A DNA stretch of 64,000 nt from an uncultured Bdellovibrionales bacterium. Lineage in GTDB: Bacteria; Patescibacteriota; Minisyncoccia; Moranbacterales; UBA1568. Both the position numbers and the translations under genes were made by a program. The first letter of the stretch is position 1; each line of letters begins with the position of its first letter. Under the pieces are notes generated by a model that made no database searches, was not told where the DNA came from, and saw only the letters and a list, made by a program, of their open reading frames with translations. Shown in pieces: positions 1 to 31,529 of the stretch. The stretch spans positions 2,979-66,978 of the forward strand of contig CAYQPQ010000002.1 in NCBI GenBank assembly GCA_964420045.1, given 5' to 3'.

Positions 1-1297
1 AACGTTCTCCCTATAGTATAGATCGATTCGTTTCGAACGACAACAAAAAAATGAAAACGGGCACAAAAACGGGAAAATGCGGAACCCCCGAATCCATACG
101 GAAACACCCGAATCGAACATTTCGAATGGGTACGGGTACTCCTTTGAAGATGAAGATGGCAAGGATTGAGTGAAACAGCGAGTACCTTCTTCTGCAAGGA
201 GGCTCCGGCTTCCCGATACGAAGAAAACAGAAACGACGCGCAGTTGAACGCGCCCTCGAAGAACGACGCACTCGCTCCCGCTCCCAATGAATGAAAGTCC
301 CTCGAAAGTGAATCACAAAACTTCTCCCTCTGAGTTGTGGCGAGCGAACCCCGCCGAGAGGCGGGGGAGCGAGTAGAAAGAATGACTCGACAATCCTAAA
401 AGTGTCCCGAGTACTCTCGGGACTCCTTATTCGGAGAACGTCACCCCGCCCCGAGGGCGGGGATGGGGGTGGGAGCGTACCCGTATTGTCGGGCGAGAGA
501 GTGGAGCGTGAGACGTACTCGTCGAACTCCTCAATGAACCCGTGCCCCGTCGCGTCCCGTAGCATTTTTCGGTACTCCGAAAATGCGATTAGGGGGCAAA
601 AGGCGAGAGGTTGGGTGAATCGCCTTTTGAGCACCCCGATGGAGAGCCCTATCCCCCCTGCATAGCAATTAGGACTCCTATCATTATTGGGGTACGCCGG
701 GGTTGGGGGGTGCAGGGGGGAGGGTCGGCTCGGGGTGCGACCCCTACTGGATGGGTGGCTGTTCCCCGAGGACGGCGAGGGGGACAGGCACCCTAGCGAC
801 GACTCTCTACTGAGAGCTCCGAGTATGCTCTCGGGGCACCGCTTCCCCGTACCCGTGCCTGTATGACGCGCGAATCCGAAGAGGCTTTATCCATAATGAA
901 CCCGTACCCTTCGCCCGAGGAAAGTTGCGCCCCGAGTATGCTCTCGGGGCACCTTTTCCTCGTACCGGCATTAATGAGTGTTTTGGCTTGAAATGAGGAC
1001 AAATATCTGATAGAGTAAAAATGCACACAACTCAATTTCATCGAAGTGGAAGCGATGTATTTTTTTACATCGTTTCAGCGAAAGGGCGACCTTCGTTACG
1101 ACTTCGATGAGGAGTTGTGTGCAAACGAGTGGTCGTCCTTTTGTGTTTGCACTCATGTACTCCTCACGCCATTCTCGACATTCATTCTTGAGATACAAAG
1201 GCGGTCGGCCGTTTTGGGAATGGACTGTTGCTGACATTGTTCTCTACTTCGTTTTGCTTGGGATCATTCTATTGCTCACTCTTTTTGAGAATTGAGT

Positions 1298-3073
1298 ATG
1301 AAATACGTCATCTACGCGAGAAAATCTACCGAAAGCGAAGACCGACAAACGCTCTCGATTCAGTCGCAGATTATCGAAATGCAAGAGATTGCAAAACGCG
1401 AGAATCTCGATATTGTGAAATTGTTTCAGGAATCGAAATCAGCAAAAGCGCCGGGGCGTCCGGTGTTTTCCGAGATGATCGAGTTTATCAAAAAGGGCAA
1501 AGCGGACGGAATACTTTGTTGGAAAATCGATCGTCTCGCAAGAAATCCACTTGATGAAGGGCTGATCAAATGGATGCTTCAAAAGAGCGAGATCAAACAA
1601 ATCAAAACATCCGAACGCGATTACAATCCGGAAGACAATGTGGTCATTGCGAGCATCGAGTTTTCCATGGCGAATCAGTACATCCGAGACTTGAGCCGAA
1701 ACGTGAAACGCGGACAAGCGGAGAAAGTGCGGCGAGGAGAATATCCGAGCTCCCCTCCCCTCGGGTACACGGGCGATCCCAAAACGAAGCGATTGATTAT
1801 CGTCGAGAAAGAAGCGAGGTGTATCAGAAAAGCATTTGCTCTCTACGCGGCAAAAAGTCATTCGATCATTTCGATTACCGAAGAGTTACAAAAAGAAGGG
1901 CTTCGAACTCGTCGAGGAAGGATCATCTACAAGTCCACGCTCCATCGTATCCTCACCAATCCCATCTACTGCGGAATGTTTGAGTGGAACGGACAAACCC
2001 ACGCAGGAACGCACGAGCCGATTGTTTCGAAGAAACTCTTTGACGAAGTGCAACACATACTCTCCCCGGCGCAGTTTGTCCGACGGACGGAATCATGGAA
2101 GTACACCTACCGCGGACTCATGATGTGCGGCGAGTGCGGACTTAAAGTAACCGCGGAAAAGCAGAAGGGTCATGTCTACTACCGATGCACCAAAACATTC
2201 GGGACACACCGCTGTTCGCAACCGTACCTGCGCGAAGAAAAACTCATTGAACTTATCGGCGAAGAGTTGAAAAGAATTCAGTTTGATGAAGAGATTCTCG
2301 ATCTTGTGGTGGATGCGTCCAAAGAGAAGTACGCTTCCATGGGAGCAGACACCGCCGAGCAAGAAAAGACACTCCTTGCCGCTCTCAAAGAAAATCAAAG
2401 TCGGAAGGATTCGCTTGTGGAAAAGTTTATCGACAATGCACTTCCAAAAGACATCTACGATCGAAAGTTCTCCGAGCTCTCGGAAGAAGAAGCGGGCATC
2501 AGGGAACAACTTCAAGATATGCAAACACAGGACGGGAAGGTTATTGAGAACATTGAGACAGCGGTACAGTTCATCAAGACCGCGCATGACCTCTTCAATC
2601 GAGGCGACGAAACCGTCAAAAGAGAGGTCGCCTTTCTCGTATCTTCGAACCTGGGGTTAAAGGACCGAAAGATCGCGTATTTCAACCTCAATGACCCCTT
2701 CTCGTGGCTCGTCGAAGACGCGTCGTCCCTTCTTCCTCAAAACACAACCCTCGAACCGGCGTTTGTGCGCTTCCCAAAAGGAAAAGCAGTCTCTCATGAG
2801 ACTGCTCGTTCTGTTCTGCGGAGAGGCAGGGATTCGAACCCTGGAAGGGGTTTCCCCCTTAACACATTAGCAGTGTGCTGCTTTCAGCCGCTCAGCCACC
2901 TCTCCAAGTTCTCACAAATTTTCAATGAGCTACGCGCCAAGCAGACTGTAACTCCCCCAAAACAGCTTCATTGCTCGAAGTACCGAGGGACACGCATAGA
3001 AAGAGTGTATCACTGCCAAACACCCTCTGGCAAGACAAGAAACACGCGACCAGTTCGAGCAAATAGACTTTGA
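1298..3073 (+). CDS. Large serine recombinase (resolvase/invertase catalytic domain, recombinase domain, zinc ribbon, coiled coil). The ORF track's frame starts at a TTG at 1292; the first ATG is 1298. There is no in-frame stop until 3073, so the C-terminal ~90 aa read antisense through tRNA-Ser and are probably not functional
   Basis: The N-terminus VIYARKSTESEDRQTLSIQSQ is the hallmark serine-recombinase catalytic motif, with the nucleophile Ser in YARKST. A Cys-rich segment CGECG...YYRC...HRC is followed by a long coiled coil, as in large serine integrases. The 3' end of the ORF overlaps the tRNA at 2819-2905 on the opposite strand. Confidence 0.8.
   Translation: MKYVIYARKSTESEDRQTLSIQSQIIEMQEIAKRENLDIVKLFQESKSAKAPGRPVFSEMIEFIKKGKADGILCWKIDRLARNPLDEGLIKWMLQKSEIKQIKTSERDYNPEDNVVIASIEFSMANQYIRDLSRNVKRGQAEKVRRGEYPSSPPLGYTGDPKTKRLIIVEKEARCIRKAFALYAAKSHSIISITEELQKEGLRTRRGRIIYKSTLHRILTNPIYCGMFEWNGQTHAGTHEPIVSKKLFDEVQHILSPAQFVRRTESWKYTYRGLMMCGECGLKVTAEKQKGHVYYRCTKTFGTHRCSQPYLREEKLIELIGEELKRIQFDEEILDLVVDASKEKYASMGADTAEQEKTLLAALKENQSRKDSLVEKFIDNALPKDIYDRKFSELSEEEAGIREQLQDMQTQDGKVIENIETAVQFIKTAHDLFNRGDETVKREVAFLVSSNLGLKDRKIAYFNLNDPFSWLVEDASSLLPQNTTLEPAFVRFPKGKAVSHETARSVLRRGRDSNPGRGFPLNTLAVCCFQPLSHLSKFSQIFNELRAKQTVTPPKQLHCSKYRGTRIERVYHCQTPSGKTRNTRPVRANRL
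2819..2905 (-). tRNA. tRNA-Ser (anticodon GCT), class II with a long variable arm
   Basis: The reverse complement reads GGAGAGGTGGCTGAGCGG...GCACA-CTGCTAA-TGTGT...GGGGGAAACCCC...CAGGGTTCGAATCCCTGCCTCTCCG. It has a 7-bp acceptor stem, a GTTCGAATC T-loop, an anticodon loop CTGCTAA and a long variable stem-loop. Confidence 0.88.
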
Positions 3074-3378
3074 GGTAACAGTGGTGCGGAGGCTTGCACA
3101 AAGGTGAGAAGTATGCTACACTCGCGCTAGTAGTAAGTTTTCTCTCAATGAGTTTCTGGCGGAATCCAGCACCTTTTTTGGCAAGAGTCCCCGTATCATG
3201 AGCGTGAAAGCGAAGCGGCTTCGCCTTTACACATACGATGATATCAAGGACTTTATCTGAAAAAGGTGCTGGACATTCTAAGGGCGAGATATTCGAGCTT
3301 TTAGGGAAAGCGGGAGCAGGTAGAGGAGAAAGAAGGTCGGCTTACTCGCGTTACTCTTACCTTAGAATCAGAATTTCT

Positions 3379-3690
3379 ATGGCACAGAAGCTCTACGTCG
3401 GTAACCTCTCATACGGCACCACGGACGACAGCCTCCGAGAAGCATTCTCAGAAGCGGGATCCGTTACGTCGGCGAGCGTTATTACCGATCGTGCCACCGG
3501 TCGTTCGAAAGGCTTCGGCTTTGTCGAAATGGCTAGTGATGCGGATGCCGAAAAGGCTATCTCCATGTGGAACGGAAAGGATCTCGATGGTCGCACCCTC
3601 GTAGTAAACGAGGCTCGCCCATTCGAACCCCGCCCGCGCCAAGGTGGAAACGATGGCGGTTACGGCGGTGGCAACAAGCGGGACTGGTAA
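3379..3690 (+). CDS. RRM-type RNA-binding protein with a glycine-rich C-terminus
   Basis: MAQKLYVGNLSYGTTDDSLREAFSEAG...RSKGFGFVEMA carries the RNP2 (LYVGNL) and RNP1 (KGFGFVEM) motifs. The tail is GGNDGGYGGG. Confidence 0.85.
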   Translation: MAQKLYVGNLSYGTTDDSLREAFSEAGSVTSASVITDRATGRSKGFGFVEMASDADAEKAISMWNGKDLDGRTLVVNEARPFEPRPRQGGNDGGYGGGNKRDW

Positions 3691-3781
3691 TTCTCTCCTG
3701 CTTCGAGTTCTCCAAAGAAAAACTCTCCGAGCAATCGGGGAGTTTTTTATTCCTTCCTCATTATAAACAATACAGCAACGT

Positions 3782-4960
3782 TTAATGCACCGTGACGGGC
3801 GTGCCGATGTCTGCCCAATTATAGACGCGCTCGGCAGGACCGACACCGAGGCGGACACAGCCGTGCGAGACCGGCGTGCCAAGATGATTTGCACCTTCCT
3901 TGTAGCCGCCCGGCCACTCAGGCAGTTCGTGAATGCCATATTTCCCGCTTGCCACAAGTGCCATCCAATACGGCATATAGAGCCCATAAGCCTTGGACCA
4001 CGGGCGCGGCGCCTTATTGTGAATCGTATAGTTCCCCTTCGGCGTATCCATTCCCCGCTTGCCCGACGAAACCATATAGGCATCAACAGCCTTCCCATCT
4101 TCAAAAGTTGTCATGACCTGCGTCTCCACATTGATATCGATATATTTTCCCGTGGCGACAACCGGCACCGTATAGCGCTTCGCATTGAGAAGTCGCGTCG
4201 GAAAATCCGCAGCCATAACCGTCGGCGCAGGCGGCAATGTCTCAAAACTTCCTTCATATGCCGTTTCAAAAGATGCGTCCGATGATTCCCGATGGCGCAC
4301 TCGAACCGTCAATGAATACTTCACGCCCGATTGAGTGTCCCGCGGGAGAATGCGAAACTCCTGCTTATCAGAATCAATGCCATACACCACTGCCTTTTCT
4401 CCATTGAACGAGAAATCAAGAAAAGAATCTTCCGCCGATCGATCAAGATGTACCACGACCGGATCCTCTGCTCCGAGTAGCACATCTCTCGCTCCGTCAC
4501 TCGGCGAGACCGATTCCACTTTTGGCGGCGCCCAGGTTTCGAAAAACAGCTTCGTTTCCGGGATCGACCCCAGCCACACGGTTTTCCCTGCCGGCAAAAG
4601 AAGTGAATACCGAGTCCCGGACAACCAATGCCCAACCGGCTTTACGAGAAGCTTCCGATCATCGTTCGTCCATTCAAAAATGACCGGCGTATCCGGCACA
4701 AGCCGGACAGCGTCAGCGAATCCATCCACATCAACCGAAGACGGAAAAGTCACCCCGAGCACACTCTCCGGCTTTACGCCCGCCACCGACACATCAAGCA
4801 TCGGTCGCGCTTCAAGAATGCGTGCATACGCTCGAAATCCATACACTCCCGCCGACGAAAGAAAGAGACCGATGACAAAAAGAGGCAATATGCCCCATGA
4901 CGTCTTTCGCTTTCGCTGACCGCGCAACTGATTTTCTCCCGATGAAAAATTGAAATGCAT
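3782..4960 (-). CDS. L,D-transpeptidase (YkuD domain) with an N-terminal membrane anchor
   Basis: The C-terminal HLGTPVSHGCVRLGVGPAERVYNW segment holds the catalytic His/Cys of the YkuD fold. A transmembrane segment sits at the N-terminus. Confidence 0.75.
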   Translation of the reverse strand: MHFNFSSGENQLRGQRKRKTSWGILPLFVIGLFLSSAGVYGFRAYARILEARPMLDVSVAGVKPESVLGVTFPSSVDVDGFADAVRLVPDTPVIFEWTNDDRKLLVKPVGHWLSGTRYSLLLPAGKTVWLGSIPETKLFFETWAPPKVESVSPSDGARDVLLGAEDPVVVHLDRSAEDSFLDFSFNGEKAVVYGIDSDKQEFRILPRDTQSGVKYSLTVRVRHRESSDASFETAYEGSFETLPPAPTVMAADFPTRLLNAKRYTVPVVATGKYIDINVETQVMTTFEDGKAVDAYMVSSGKRGMDTPKGNYTIHNKAPRPWSKAYGLYMPYWMALVASGKYGIHELPEWPGGYKEGANHLGTPVSHGCVRLGVGPAERVYNWADIGTPVTVH

Positions 4961-6278: not shown

Positions 6279-6312
6279 AAAAAATTCTGTTAAACACTCG
6301 CGATCAAAAGAG

Positions 6313-6399
6313 CGGTGGGGGTGAGATTCGAACTCACGGTACCGTTTCCGGTACGGCAGTTTTCAAGACTGCTACCTTAAACCGCTCGGTCACCCCACC
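6313..6399 (-). tRNA. tRNA-Ser (anticodon TGA), class II
   Basis: The reverse complement reads GGTGGGGTGACCGAGCGGTTTAAGGTAGCAGT-CTTGAAA-ACTGC...GGAAACGG...GAGTTCGAATCTCACCCCCACCG. It has a long variable arm, a GTTCGAATC T-loop and anticodon TGA. Confidence 0.88.
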
Positions 6400-7198: not shown

Positions 7199-7271
7199 GC
7201 GCTCGTAGCTCAGTGGATAGAGCGTCTGGTTGCGGTCCAGAAGGTCGCAGGTTCGATTCCTGCCGAGCGCA
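7199..7271 (+). tRNA. tRNA, 73 nt, anticodon GCG (Arg); the isotype call is tentative
   Basis: The sequence is GCGCTCG-TA-GCTC-AGTGGATA-GAGC-G-TCTGG-TTGCGGT-CCAGA-AGGTC-GCAGG-TTCGATT-CCTGC-CGAGCGC-A, a canonical cloverleaf. Anticodon loop positions 34-36 are GCG. Confidence 0.8.
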
Positions 7272-7398
7272 CACTGACACAAAGTACAAGGATTTACACC
7301 TCTCCAAGAAAGATAAAAGACAGGCTCTTCGCCTGTCTTTACTATATTCATCGACAAAAACACGTGAAAGCTTCGCCATGCAGACGTCAAGACACTTC

Positions 7399-10582: not shown

Positions 10583-12664
10583 ATGCTTTCCTACCAAACA
10601 GCCATTTCGGCTCTCCCGACAATTCAAAAGACCTTCGTCTCAAAATTTGCAACGCTCGGCCTATATACCGTTCGAGATCTCTTGTTTCATATTCCCTCGC
10701 GATACGAAGATTTCTCACGCATACAACTCATCGCCAGCGCCGTCGAAGAAGAAAAAACCACATTTGAAGGAACCGTCGCGCCGTTTCGAGAGAAAAAGAC
10801 ATGGAAACGACGCCTCACCATATTCGAAACCGAGTTGACCGACGACTCGGGAACGATTCGCCTCGTCTGGTTCAATCAGAAACTCGTCGCCGGGAGCCTG
10901 CTCCCAGGAACACGCATTCGCGTCTCCGGAAAGGTCTCGAGCGATCGCGACGGACTCGTGATGGTTTCCCCCGCATTCGAACGCGCGAATCGCCGCCCGA
11001 CACACACTGCGCGCCTCGTTCCTATCTATCCGGAAACCTACGGACTCACCTCAAAATTCATCCGCTGGCAAATCGAAACACTCTTCGAGAAAAAAATTGG
11101 CGTGCCAGATCCGCTGCCGCAGTCGCTCGTCGACAAACTTCACCTCCCGACACTTCCGCGCGCCCTCCGCATGATTCACTTTCCCGAATCTCCGGACGAA
11201 GTGGAAATCGCCCGAAAGCGACTCGCTTTCGATGACATGTTTCTCGCTCAACTCAAAAGCCTCGAGCTAAAATCGATCTGGAAACAATCGTCCGCCCTTC
11301 CCTTTCCGAGAGACACGAATTTCCTTGCGGAAAGCGCGTCCTATTTTCCCTTTTCACTTACCGCCGCACAAACGAAAGCCACGGAAGAAATTCTCGATGA
11401 TCTTGCCAAAAGCATACCGATGAACCGTCTCGTCAACGGCGACGTCGGTTCCGGGAAAACTGCCGTTGCCATACTTGCAGCGCTTCGAGTGGCGCACGAC
11501 GGATTTCAAGTTGCGCTGCTTGCACCGACAGAAGTGCTCGCCCGACAACATTTTGAAACCCTCTCGACACACTTATCGCACGCGCCATTTCAAATCGCCC
11601 TCCTGACGCGTTCTTCACAGATACTCGCTACAGAAACCGTCGCCAAGGAAACCCTCAAGAACGCTATAAAGAGCGGGCTCGCAAGCATCATTATCGGCAC
11701 GCATGCACTGCTTCAAGAAGACGTGTCGTTTCGAAACCTCGCTTTGGTTATCGTCGACGAACAACATCGCTTCGGCGTTTCCCAGCGAGCCGCACTCCAA
11801 GAAGCGACGAGACATTCGAAGGACGGAATGCCTAAGACAACGCCGCACCTCCTCACACTGACCGCAACACCGATACCGCGCACCCTTGCTATCACATTCC
11901 TCGGCAATCTCGACATCTCTGTGCTCGACGAGATGCCAAAAAATCGCCTCCCTGTCATTACGAAAATAGCCGCAACACGCGACGCACGAGAAACCGTCTT
12001 TCGATTCGCTCGGCAAGAAATAAGAAAGGGTCGACAAATCTTCATTATCCTACCCCTCGTCGAAGAATCGGCAACGCTCTCCGAAGTCAAAGCCGCCAAA
12101 ACCGAGCACGAGAAACTCTCCGCAAAGGTATTTCCCGAATACTCCGTTGGATTGCTCTACGGAAAAATGAAATCCTCCGACAAAGAAAACGTTATGCGTG
12201 ACTTCAAAGAAGGAAGATTGCATGTCCTCGTTTCGACCTCCGTTGTCGAGGTGGGCGTCGACGTGCCAAATGCCACTGTCATGATTATCGAAAACGCCGA
12301 CCGATTTGGACTCTCCCAACTCCATCAATTTCGCGGACGCGTCGGGCGCGGGACACACCAATCCTATTGCTTCCTCCTTCCGGGAAAAAACAGCGCCAAC
12401 GACCGTCTTGACGCTCTCGTCGAAAGCAACAACGGCTTTTTCCTTGCCGAGAAAGACCTCGAGATTCGCGGTCCGGGAGCCTTCTTCGGACTCCGACAGT
12501 CAGGCATCCCCGATATCGCCATGAGTCACCTCGGCAACGCCCGACTCATCAAAATCGCCCACGATGAAGCAGAAGCGCTTCTCCTCGAAGATCCAGTGTT
12601 AGAGCATCATCCTTATCTTCGTGCTGCCCTCGCCGAGATGACCGAGAACGTGCACATGGAGTAA
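10583..12664 (+). CDS. recG: ATP-dependent DNA helicase RecG
   Basis: The protein has a wedge/OB N-terminal region, then helicase motif I GDVGSGKT, DEQHRFG (motif II), the TATPIPRTL segment and the RecG C-terminal motifs. Confidence 0.85.
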   Translation: MLSYQTAISALPTIQKTFVSKFATLGLYTVRDLLFHIPSRYEDFSRIQLIASAVEEEKTTFEGTVAPFREKKTWKRRLTIFETELTDDSGTIRLVWFNQKLVAGSLLPGTRIRVSGKVSSDRDGLVMVSPAFERANRRPTHTARLVPIYPETYGLTSKFIRWQIETLFEKKIGVPDPLPQSLVDKLHLPTLPRALRMIHFPESPDEVEIARKRLAFDDMFLAQLKSLELKSIWKQSSALPFPRDTNFLAESASYFPFSLTAAQTKATEEILDDLAKSIPMNRLVNGDVGSGKTAVAILAALRVAHDGFQVALLAPTEVLARQHFETLSTHLSHAPFQIALLTRSSQILATETVAKETLKNAIKSGLASIIIGTHALLQEDVSFRNLALVIVDEQHRFGVSQRAALQEATRHSKDGMPKTTPHLLTLTATPIPRTLAITFLGNLDISVLDEMPKNRLPVITKIAATRDARETVFRFARQEIRKGRQIFIILPLVEESATLSEVKAAKTEHEKLSAKVFPEYSVGLLYGKMKSSDKENVMRDFKEGRLHVLVSTSVVEVGVDVPNATVMIIENADRFGLSQLHQFRGRVGRGTHQSYCFLLPGKNSANDRLDALVESNNGFFLAEKDLEIRGPGAFFGLRQSGIPDIAMSHLGNARLIKIAHDEAEALLLEDPVLEHHPYLRAALAEMTENVHME

Positions 12665-31131: not shown

Positions 31132-31529
31132 GGGGTTGTCTAGACTCGACAGGATGCACTTTGAAAATACGCAAGCCGATTATGAAGGTGATATCGCTAA
31201 TCTCCCCTTCACGATGATATCTGCAAAATTCATCACAAAGGCAAAGCAAGCCTTCGCGCAAGCGTTCCAGCCTGCTTTCGCTTCCGCTCTCGCCTAATTT
31301 CGGCAAGAGCCATCGGACTCCCAACTCCCGATAGGGAATGTTCCGGTGTCATATCTTCGGGAAAGCCCCCTGCTCTCGCTTTATGGAGTAGCGGTCGCTT
31401 CTGCACATGAGGCACGCCGACCCGTTTTCGCACGCTTCTACGGTCCGGCGCACACCAAGCGCGCTATGCTTGTAGACTATTTTTGAAACTCATCACTGGA
31501 CATGGGTGCAATTCCCATCAACTCCACTA
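31132..31529 (+). ncRNA. ssrA: tmRNA (ssrA), one-piece. The tag ORF would be AKFITKAKQAFAQAFQPAFASALA (24 aa), with resume codon GCA at nt 31223 and stop TAA at 31295
   Basis: The 5' end GGGGTTGTCTAGACTCGACAGGAT parallels E. coli GGGGCUGAUUCUGGAUUCGACGGGAU. The 3' end GGACATGGG-TGCAATT-CCCAT-CAACTCCA forms the T-arm and the acceptor strand that pairs with the 5' GGGGTTG, keeping the G3:U wobble. The resume codon lies 91 nt from the 5' end, the tag ends ...ALA-stop, and the gene is immediately downstream of smpB. Confidence 0.8.

Follow-up and report, generated by a model that had tools for sequence, protein, structure and literature searches.

GOLLD and ROOL are ornate large noncoding RNAs of prophages, plasmids, and other mobile DNA, which cryo-electron microscopy has resolved as homo-oligomeric, RNA-only assemblies (PMC12286853). 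Here we describe a region that is nearest in kind to these RNAs and is a member of neither family. It lies at the start of a 64-kb stretch of DNA (the window; positions 2,979 to 66,978 of contig CAYQPQ010000002.1, assembly GCA_964420045.1) from a Moranbacteria-like genome of the candidate phyla radiation (CPR). The first part of this window, positions 1 to ~2840, forms the end, on the recombinase side, of an integrative element that is integrated at a tRNA-Ser(GCT) gene, and the region in question is the ~1.35-kb noncoding stretch directly upstream of the large serine recombinase gene of the element. Position 1 of the window falls ~110 nt inside this stretch and corresponds to position 10943 of a related locus, L089. 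An initial annotation, made from the letters of the window, had seen at 330-1290 a hairpin-rich region poor in open reading frames (ORFs) that could be recombinase binding sites or attachment (att) arms, a structured noncoding RNA, or a degraded element terminus. A predicted promoter at 988-1016 and a small ORF at 1155-1295, both absent from that annotation, divide the region into an RNA module (module A) and a recombinase-operon leader (module B). Module A holds a conserved plus-strand structure of ~0.8 kb that is noncoding and has no Rfam match. For the region as a whole, we consider it probable that module A is a large noncoding RNA and module B a control region of the recombinase operon, both carried on the integrative element.

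Like GOLLD and ROOL, module A (~0.8 kb) folds into multiple helices supported by covariation, is mobile-element cargo, and lies close to a tRNA gene with no neighboring protein to account for it. Unlike them, it comes from CPR bacteria, where five or six elements are so far known to carry it; it has no sequence or structure similarity to either family and no Rfam match to them even at E ≤ 10. The features by which ornate large RNAs are recognized are nonetheless found here: module A exceeds 400 nt, contains many covarying helices, is noncoding, and resides on an integrative element that a near-identical strain contig (L001) lacks and whose boundary is marked by a tRNA gene and a serine recombinase gene. 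Large structured RNAs of unassigned function are few, and new classes have given new RNA architecture and sometimes new biochemistry. The hosts of module A have small, compact CPR genomes, and structural selection on it is clear despite its exchange independently of the recombinase. Our literature searches turned up no account of an RNA like this from elements of Patescibacteria.

Module A is a conserved, noncoding plus-strand structure

Related loci were obtained in two ways. Exact-protein look-ups with the nearest homologues of the recombinase returned L004 to L007 and then L104 to L110, and searching JGI metagenomes for the invariant 18-mer CGGCTCGGGGTGCGACCC gave 63 matches, of which 62 were chance occurrences in high-G+C contigs and only L089 was real. 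The principal sources are ERZ15185891 (L004), SRR19053157 (L005), GCA_054403235.1 (L006), and Ga0268298 (L089). By nhmmer, module A is present at full length in these four loci and nowhere else among the loci compared, with pairwise nucleotide identities from 89% down to 47 to 49%. The G+C content of window positions 1-1000 is 0.56, against ~0.50 for the genome. The features of this part of the window, all on the plus strand, are as follows.

1-189: A-rich, weakly conserved spacer opening the noncoding region (alignment)
~190-962: module A, structured RNA of ~770 nt (nhmmer, alignments, and covariation)
349-366: G+C-rich hairpin CCCCGCC-GAGA-GGCGGGG
404-423: hairpin GTCCCGAG-TACT-CTCGGGAC, a perfect 20-nt palindrome of the UACU-loop family (gtcccgag-UACU-ctcgggac)
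444-462: G+C-rich hairpin CCCCGCCC-CGA-GGGCGGGG, specific to the window and L004
512-523, 566-583, 803-816, 816-837, and 929-950: other copies of the hairpins with a UACU or UAUGCY loop (pattern count)
543-806: core domain of module A, closed by helix 548-553/796-801 (RNAalifold)
562-587: core hairpin with a UACU loop (consensus structure)
597-606/620-629: core helix with the conserved loop GAGGYUGGGUGAA
631-658/714-738: long core helix, holding the invariant strings GAGCACCCCGAU and CGGCUCGGGGUGCGACCC
753-791: core hairpin with the invariant loop GAGGACGGCGA
~817-836: hairpin CUCCGAG-UAUGCU-CUCGGGG (sequence inspection)
930-949: hairpin CCCCGAG-UAUGCU-CUCGGGG (sequence inspection)

The core domain carries the strongest evidence. 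It is present in all five loci, where the invariant strings GAGCACCCCGAU, CGGCUCGGGGUGCGACCC, and CGAGGACGGCGAG alternate with helices that change in sequence and keep their pairing. RNAalifold predicted 86 pairs in the core, 25 to 26 of them with compensatory changes. Standard pairs fill 91.3% of the cells of the alignment at paired positions, compared with 45 to 51% when the 3' partners are slid by one to three columns, and none of 500 shuffles reached the observed pairing or covariation score. The consensus energy was -104.8 kcal/mol on the plus strand versus -85.4 kcal/mol on the reverse complement, with 50 versus 20 G.U pairs; because both the better consensus fold and the more numerous G.U pairs fall on the plus strand, the core structure belongs to that strand. 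These compensatory changes, together with the one-strand G.U bias and the lack of coding signal described below, bear out the structured-RNA option among those originally offered. Folding energies relative to shuffled sequences gave z scores of -4.5 for positions 300-1000 and -5.7 for 1000-1300.

A covariance model built on positions 596-751 (R1) found exactly one match in each of the five loci (E values of 1e-25 to 1e-37); no other match was significant. When the filters were turned off, the top additional match was at 5419-5592 of L108 (E = 0.43, not significant), just upstream of the L108 leader. Since L108 shares the strings GGGUGAA, CCCCGGU, GGCUCGGGG, and CGAGGAGGG, and further upstream AAUGCGGAA and UGAAUGAA, we take this stretch, on the evidence of its sequence, as a putative remote sixth member.

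Known families do not account for the region. We searched Rfam 15 (4227 models, including GOLLD, ROOL, OLE, HEARO, raiA, group I and II introns, riboswitches, and ribozymes), as the initial annotation had recommended. Only tRNAs and the transfer-messenger RNA (tmRNA) passed the gathering threshold across the whole window, only tRNAs passed in nine related loci, and six chance-level matches, all far below threshold, were returned at E ≤ 10 over positions 1-1400. Searches of viral contigs with CGGCTCGGGGTGCGACCC gave no match. A closing-stem pattern gave 29 matches there, close to a rough chance estimate and none significant with R1 (the best, L014, at E = 1.7), and the leader pattern and the recombinase protein gave nothing in the same contigs. 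Neither did blastn against phage and plasmid collections. A recombinase scan of GTDB genomes yielded one useful relative, L100 (47% identity), which has neither module.

All hairpins named in the initial annotation were found where it had placed them, and both hairpins and repeats exceed chance. The direct repeat that it had reported, CCGAGTATGCTCTCGGGGCACC, is real and is 22 nt long rather than 23; it occurs exactly twice in the 64 kb (at 819 and 932; shuffle expectation of 0) and extends to 38 nt at 89% identity. The patterns CCCGAG..CTCGGG and CCCGCC..GGCGGG each occur twice, where shuffles predict 0.03 and 0.01 occurrences. A search for the hairpin consensus, proposed in the initial annotation for the genome and made here over the window, found both patterns confined to this region. 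The feature does extend beyond the start originally set for it at 330, as conservation begins at ~190. Hairpins with UACU or UAUGCY loops number six on the plus strand of positions 1-1300 versus one on the plus strand of the other 62.7 kb. At homologous hairpin positions the stem covaries and the loop is kept or swaps between UACU and UAUGCC, as in gacg-UACU-cgtc of the window, acgcggg-UACU-cccgcgu of L004, and gucccgag-UACU-cucgggac of L006. At 349-366 the hairpin of relatives likewise has another stem, CCCGCGCC/GGCGCGGG in L004 and GCCGGC/GCCGGC in L005. A kept loop on a changing stem fits hairpins that present a single-stranded loop and not double-stranded palindromic protein sites.

These observations bear directly on the suggestion that these hairpins represent att sites or arms for the recombinase, or dispersed extragenic palindromes of the REP or MITE type. 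Several perfect or near-perfect palindromes are indeed repeated within the region, but the motifs are confined to 330-960 and absent from the rest of the window, and the stems covary instead of conserving sequence. The region is also internal to the element, ~1.9 kb from the element-host junction in tRNA-Ser, and the point at which homology is lost, both among elements and with the host, is the tRNA end and not within 1-1290. Large serine recombinases act on short att sites and are not known to need arm sites. We therefore give this explanation next to no probability.

The same conclusion applies to a degraded terminus or to decayed pseudogenes whose proteins would be intact in relatives. Gene calls do cover the homologous region in L004 (260 amino acids, minus strand) and L006 (155 amino acids, plus strand), and L089 has a 324-amino-acid minus-strand ORF; distant relatives have called genes of 92 to 177 amino acids directly upstream of the recombinase. 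The ORFs over module A, however, are Arg/Pro/Gly-rich, lie on opposite strands and in shifting frames, and match no family, and an alignment of the L089 ORF with L006, the closest relative of L089, passes through three different frames. The window and L004 are 68% identical in amino acids despite ~90% nucleotide identity. Indel lengths are not multiples of three as a rule (1, 1, 1, 1, 10, 4, and 2 for the window versus L004; 1, 6, 1, 2, 4, 15, and 25 for L089 versus L006), and substitutions show no preference among the three codon phases. The calls of 92 to 177 amino acids share only a 46-amino-acid C-terminal part, together with nucleotide-level conservation of the leader helices, and are the small ORF of module B over-extended across the leader. 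The relatives thus offer no shared intact frame, triplet indels, or codon-periodic substitutions, and no intact protein in the homologous region, the finding that had been named in advance as pointing to a decayed gene; there is hardly any chance that the region is one. The minus-strand frame at 11-634, dismissed from the start as a nongene, does exist (207 amino acids), has no Pfam match, and is not conserved. Public assemblies carry several spurious proteins, of up to 260 amino acids, annotated over homologous regions.

Several points weigh against reading module A as a free-standing large RNA. The blocks on either side of the core (190-543 and 806-962) have weaker consensus structures, while still holding covarying helices such as 878-884/952-958. 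The covariation counts rest on few independent events, as there are five clear copies in three lineages and one remote copy. We sought a promoter for module A by scanning and manual inspection, and none could be fixed with confidence. Hairpin 929-950 has the look of a terminator, a reading weakened by the pairing of its U-tract (952-958) with 878-884, which includes a compensatory change. L005 is without UACU-loop hairpins, which makes these hairpins a lineage-specific elaboration that is not essential to any shared function and not part of the core. In single-stranded DNA (ssDNA), too, G.T is the mismatch that is tolerated best, leaving room for an ssDNA role. Finally, the putative transcription of module A is read from its sequence, and its function is assigned by analogy.

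Other features of this stretch touch module A less directly. A long-range pairing of GGGUACGGGU (128-137) with 900-911 holds in the window and L089 only and was left out of the structure. The spacer at 1-189 contains two TTCGAA-containing repeats (~20-40 and 105-128). A 13-mer in it, GAAAATGCGGAAC (73-85), lies within a stretch (65-94) common to L006, L007, and L109; it is also present in L089, with the one-base variant GAAAATGCGGAAT in L108, and is conserved more widely than module A. It may be a promoter element or a binding site.

Module B: predicted promoter, two-state leader, and small ORF

Module B occupies the stretch between module A and the recombinase gene, on the plus strand.

988-1016: sigma-70-type promoter TTGAAA-17 nt-TAGAGT with an extended -10 TG (consensus match)
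1023-1122: leader three-way junction of helices P1 to P4 (covariation), starting ~7 nt downstream of the promoter
1023-1033/1112-1122: P1
1038-1047/1101-1110: P2
1052-1059/1066-1073: P3
1079-1085/1090-1095: P4, capped by a GCGA (GNRA) tetraloop
1080-1091/1131-1142: alternative 12-bp helix GAAAGGGCGACC/GGUCGUCCUUUU, followed by UGUGUUU
1155-1295: small ORF of 46 amino acids, MYSSRHSRHSFLRYKGGRPFWEWTVADIVLYFVLLGIILLLTLFEN (translation conserved in nine loci)

A promoter scan found the promoter in the window and L089, and its TTGAAA and TGnTAnAnT elements are also present in L004, L005, and L006. Judged from its position, the transcript would start near 1022-1024. The nested inverted repeat of the initial annotation was confirmed, at 1038-1110, with its inner GCGATGTA/TACATCGT hairpin, and a further stem (1023-1033/1112-1122) encloses it. 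In nine loci, with recombinases 60 to 92% identical, 18 of the 44 predicted leader pairs show compensatory changes. The plus strand is again favored (-49.8 versus -35.9 kcal/mol; 34 versus 11 G.U pairs). A covariance model of the leader (R2) matched only directly upstream of the recombinase in each relative (E values of 1e-18 to 1e-23) and found no leader in L006 or L100 to L103.

A second conserved pairing exists in the leader. The alternative helix uses the 5' half and loop of P4, so it competes with P4. It is paired in 98.1% of cells in the nine sequences, compared with 43 to 67% when slid, and contains two compensatory pairs and four that vary on one side only, with G.U, A-U, and G-C exchanges. 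A U-rich tract follows the helix, and 13 nt further on is the ATG of the small ORF. The two conserved pairings may form either a switch or a pseudoknot.

Contrary to the initial view that the region holds no credible ORF, the 46-codon ORF at 1155-1295 is conserved as a protein in nine related loci despite strong nucleotide divergence. Its product has a basic N terminus, the motif YKGGRPFWEW (YKGxxPxWxW as the shared pattern), and one predicted transmembrane helix, and matches nothing in Pfam or PHROGs. Because frame-breaking 1-nt indels occur in L089 just upstream, coding starts at the conserved ATG at 1155. The stop codon lies 2 nt before the recombinase ATG.

Module B resembles attenuator or riboswitch leaders and hok-type mRNAs in being a promoter-proximal folded leader with two mutually exclusive conserved helices between the promoter and a small hydrophobic ORF. 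It differs from riboswitches and other known leaders in that it matches no known family and that no ligand, antisense RNA, or Shine-Dalgarno sequestration was identified. In comparison with type I toxin-antitoxin systems, a small transmembrane ORF and a folded leader are present, but our promoter scan found no antisense promoter, and the small ORF precedes, and is probably coupled to, the recombinase gene. We propose that module B, through its promoter, ~130-nt leader, and 46-amino-acid membrane-type ORF, would control expression of the recombinase operon. The two leader conformations, as modeled, may act as a gate on read-through of transcription or on translation of the small ORF and, through coupling, on the recombinase as well. 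A two-state leader and a membrane-type ORF would bear on the control of integration and excision in tRNA-targeting serine recombinases.

Exchange of modules and possible roles of module A

The two modules and the recombinase gene occur in different combinations. L006 retains module A and the promoter with the leader and small ORF deleted and the recombinase gene intact, and L007, L104, L109, and L110 retain the leader and small ORF with no detectable module A. Sequence relationships are also discordant. The RNAs of L006 and L089 are 89% identical, with recombinases 64% identical and different targets (tRNA-Asp and tRNA-Gln). Conversely, the L005 recombinase is 88 to 91% identical to those of the window and L006, and its RNA is ~49% identical; L005 and L006 share the same tRNA target (Asp), again with RNAs ~49% identical.

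These patterns, and a direct search for guide sequences, bear on whether module A could be an RNA guide or cofactor of the serine recombinase similar to the bridge RNAs (seekRNAs) of IS110/IS1111 elements. Such a guide would explain how recombinases 88 to 92% identical come to occupy different tRNA genes, tRNA-Ser in the window and tRNA-Asp in L005 and L006, and module A shares with bridge RNAs the position of a structured noncoding RNA immediately upstream of a site-specific recombinase in a mobile element. The recombinase here, however, is a large serine recombinase and not of the defining IS110 type, and it has its own DNA-binding domains. Module A is also ~5 times longer than bridge RNAs and without guide-like complementarity: no match or complement of at least 9 nt between the noncoding region and its own tRNA target occurs beyond those of noncognate pairs, in a search with split guides of 4 to 7 nt outside its reach. 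Relatives with intact recombinases are without module A. The independent exchange of the RNA and the recombinase and the lack of a cognate match of this length argue against module A as a recombinase guide or cofactor, an explanation that we regard as so unlikely that it can nearly be set aside. Instead, we favor module A as an independent, exchangeable RNA module.

The pattern of exchange likewise bears on whether module A is an untranslated mRNA extension acting purely in cis, as the 3' untranslated region of the operon of replication-like genes or an upstream part of the 5' untranslated region of the recombinase. Module A is on the same strand as both flanking operons, and no dedicated promoter or terminator was identified for it. 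A conserved promoter nevertheless separates module A from the recombinase leader, relatives have leader and recombinase without module A, and L006 has module A but no leader. The ORFs immediately upstream in L089 are on the minus strand, so that the upstream operon context varies. We consider such an extension distinctly unlikely.

The main rival to a free-standing RNA, and less favored than it, is a DNA-level replication or transfer origin, either as ssDNA hairpins similar to a single-strand origin or origin of transfer (oriT) or as a primer similar to ColE1 RNA II. The region is directly downstream of small replication-initiator-like genes: an 87-amino-acid protein of L004 matches phrog_154 (E = 2e-6), and the HTH_36 proteins of L007, L104, and L109 (small winged-helix proteins) match replication-initiator or DnaD-like PHROGs. 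Single-strand origins typically contain hairpins whose stems vary around a conserved loop, and module A has such hairpins; like ColE1 RNA II and single-strand origins, it is also a long, strand-specific, folded noncoding region by replication genes. Other relatives (L110, L104, L007, and L109) have different, equally structured G+C-rich DNA at this place. Against an origin, we observed no rolling-circle Rep or relaxase gene in the available parts of the elements, no iteron arrays, no cluster of DnaA boxes (only sporadic single boxes), no recognizable RNase H-type site, and no similarity to plasmid or phage collections. In addition, the region is G+C-rich and not A+T-rich, G.U pairs are abundant, and the core consists of ~260 nt of long multibranch helices and not of a few isolated hairpins. 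An origin therefore appears unlikely to us.

Returning to the favored explanation, we propose that module A would be an autonomously folding large noncoding RNA, presumably transcribed from the plus strand, with a ~260-nt core and peripheral hairpins, some of which would display a common UACU or UAUGCY loop. By analogy with known systems, it may serve as a structural or protein-binding RNA for the maintenance or replication module of the element itself and is possibly linked to the adjacent replication-like genes. A bolder version, which we consider a long shot, is that module A is the first member of a new class of large ornate RNAs that is confined to CPR integrative elements and works with the recombination or replication machinery. 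One form that it could take is a scaffold that assists a serine recombinase in using the conserved T-arm shared by different tRNA genes, and another is an RNA primer or organizer for replication of the excised circle. An RNA-assisted serine recombinase, if real, would be without precedent.

In the relatives that have no module A, another G+C-rich, strongly folded sequence occupies the same position upstream of the leader. In L110, positions 3772-4047 contain nested inverted repeats with 32- and 46-nt arms (z = -7.2), and a 62-nt hairpin, CUAUCAGGGAAGGGUGG...CCACCCUGAUAG, is common to L104 (5159-5221), L007 (9383-9444), and L109 (5375-5438). The 240- to 241-amino-acid ORFs called at this position in L007 and L109 are alike in their first 34 residues only. 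The structures of these four loci may be additional structured RNAs, either unrelated or highly diverged.

The integrative element and its tRNA junction

Two features define the element end.

1298-3073, plus strand: large serine recombinase gene (Pfam Resolvase, Recombinase, and Zn_ribbon_recom)
2818-2905, minus strand: tRNA-Ser(GCT) gene, at the element-host junction (tRNA search)

We identified 2786 homologues of the recombinase, typically of ~519 amino acids, and the named ones are from Candidatus Moranbacteria or Patescibacteria; an exact-protein look-up of the window recombinase itself returned no record. Homology to relatives stops at ~2840, and the frame stays open antisense through tRNA-Ser(GCT) to its first stop at 3073, giving 591 amino acids versus ~519 in relatives. 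The recombinase genes of relatives likewise end inside tRNA-Asp, tRNA-Gln(CTG), tRNA-Gln(TTG), or tRNA-Arg genes, at 2989-3063 in L006 (Asp), 11524-11597 in L007 (Gln-CTG), and 13744-13816 in L089 (Gln-TTG), and tRNA genes occupy the equivalent place at the recombinase 3' end in L104 (7522-7595) and L110 (6224-6297). Recombinases 88 to 92% identical occupy different tRNA genes (Ser and Asp). The near-identical strain contig L001 (98 to 99.7% identity) matches the window only from 2612 rightward and has other genes to the left. Because of the recombinase-tRNA overlap, the lack of the left part in L001, and the ending of relatives in tRNA genes, the first ~2.8 kb of the window is the end of an integrated element, whose left part falls outside the window. 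The att junction is within the tRNA gene at the recombinase 3' end and not in the upstream region. The element also carries restriction-modification and helicase-type cargo.

In pSAM2-type actinomycete elements, the layout is rep-(xis)-int-attP(tRNA). The element described here has replication-like genes, a recombinase gene, and an att site overlapping a tRNA 3' end in the same order. It differs in that the recombinase is of the serine and not the tyrosine type, that its frame runs into the tRNA gene, and that a ~1.3-kb structured noncoding block separates the replication-like genes from the recombinase gene.

Further observations concern the junction. At this end of the recombinase frame (window 2612-3073), and likewise in the relatives, the 3' part of the tRNA gene encodes the last residues of the recombinase. 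L001 (5809-6330 and 6682-12066) retains only the last ~206 nt of the recombinase gene beside tRNA-Ser, with a type I restriction-modification cluster beyond this remnant, an arrangement that points to an earlier element at the same site that was replaced or decayed. A hairpin at 2786-2805 (GCAGTCTC/GAGACTGC), with the minus-strand tail TTTTCCTTTT, is similar to a terminator for tRNA-Ser and lies inside the recombinase coding region; its stem covaries among relatives sitting in other tRNA genes. In L004, the sequence after the recombinase (11500-11666) is not recognized as a tRNA gene, its start (GCGGGGACTGCGGGACGATTTTAGAAC) resembles a tRNA 3' end, and the contig stops 67 nt past the recombinase stop codon. 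This end could be a different junction or an unintegrated form.

Elsewhere in the window, we found genes for tmRNA (31132-31529), tRNA-Ser(TGA) (6312-6399), and tRNA-Arg(GCG) (7199-7272). GC skew is positive over the first 2 kb, which belong to the element, and negative in all 1-kb bins from 4 kb to the window end except 42-43 kb. A nested inverted repeat at 3165-3273, with 26-nt outer arms (3165-3190/3248-3273) enclosing a second pair (3195-3216/3218-3239), is located ~100 nt upstream of a gene for an RRM-type RNA-binding protein (ATG at 3380) and may be a structured 5' region of that gene.

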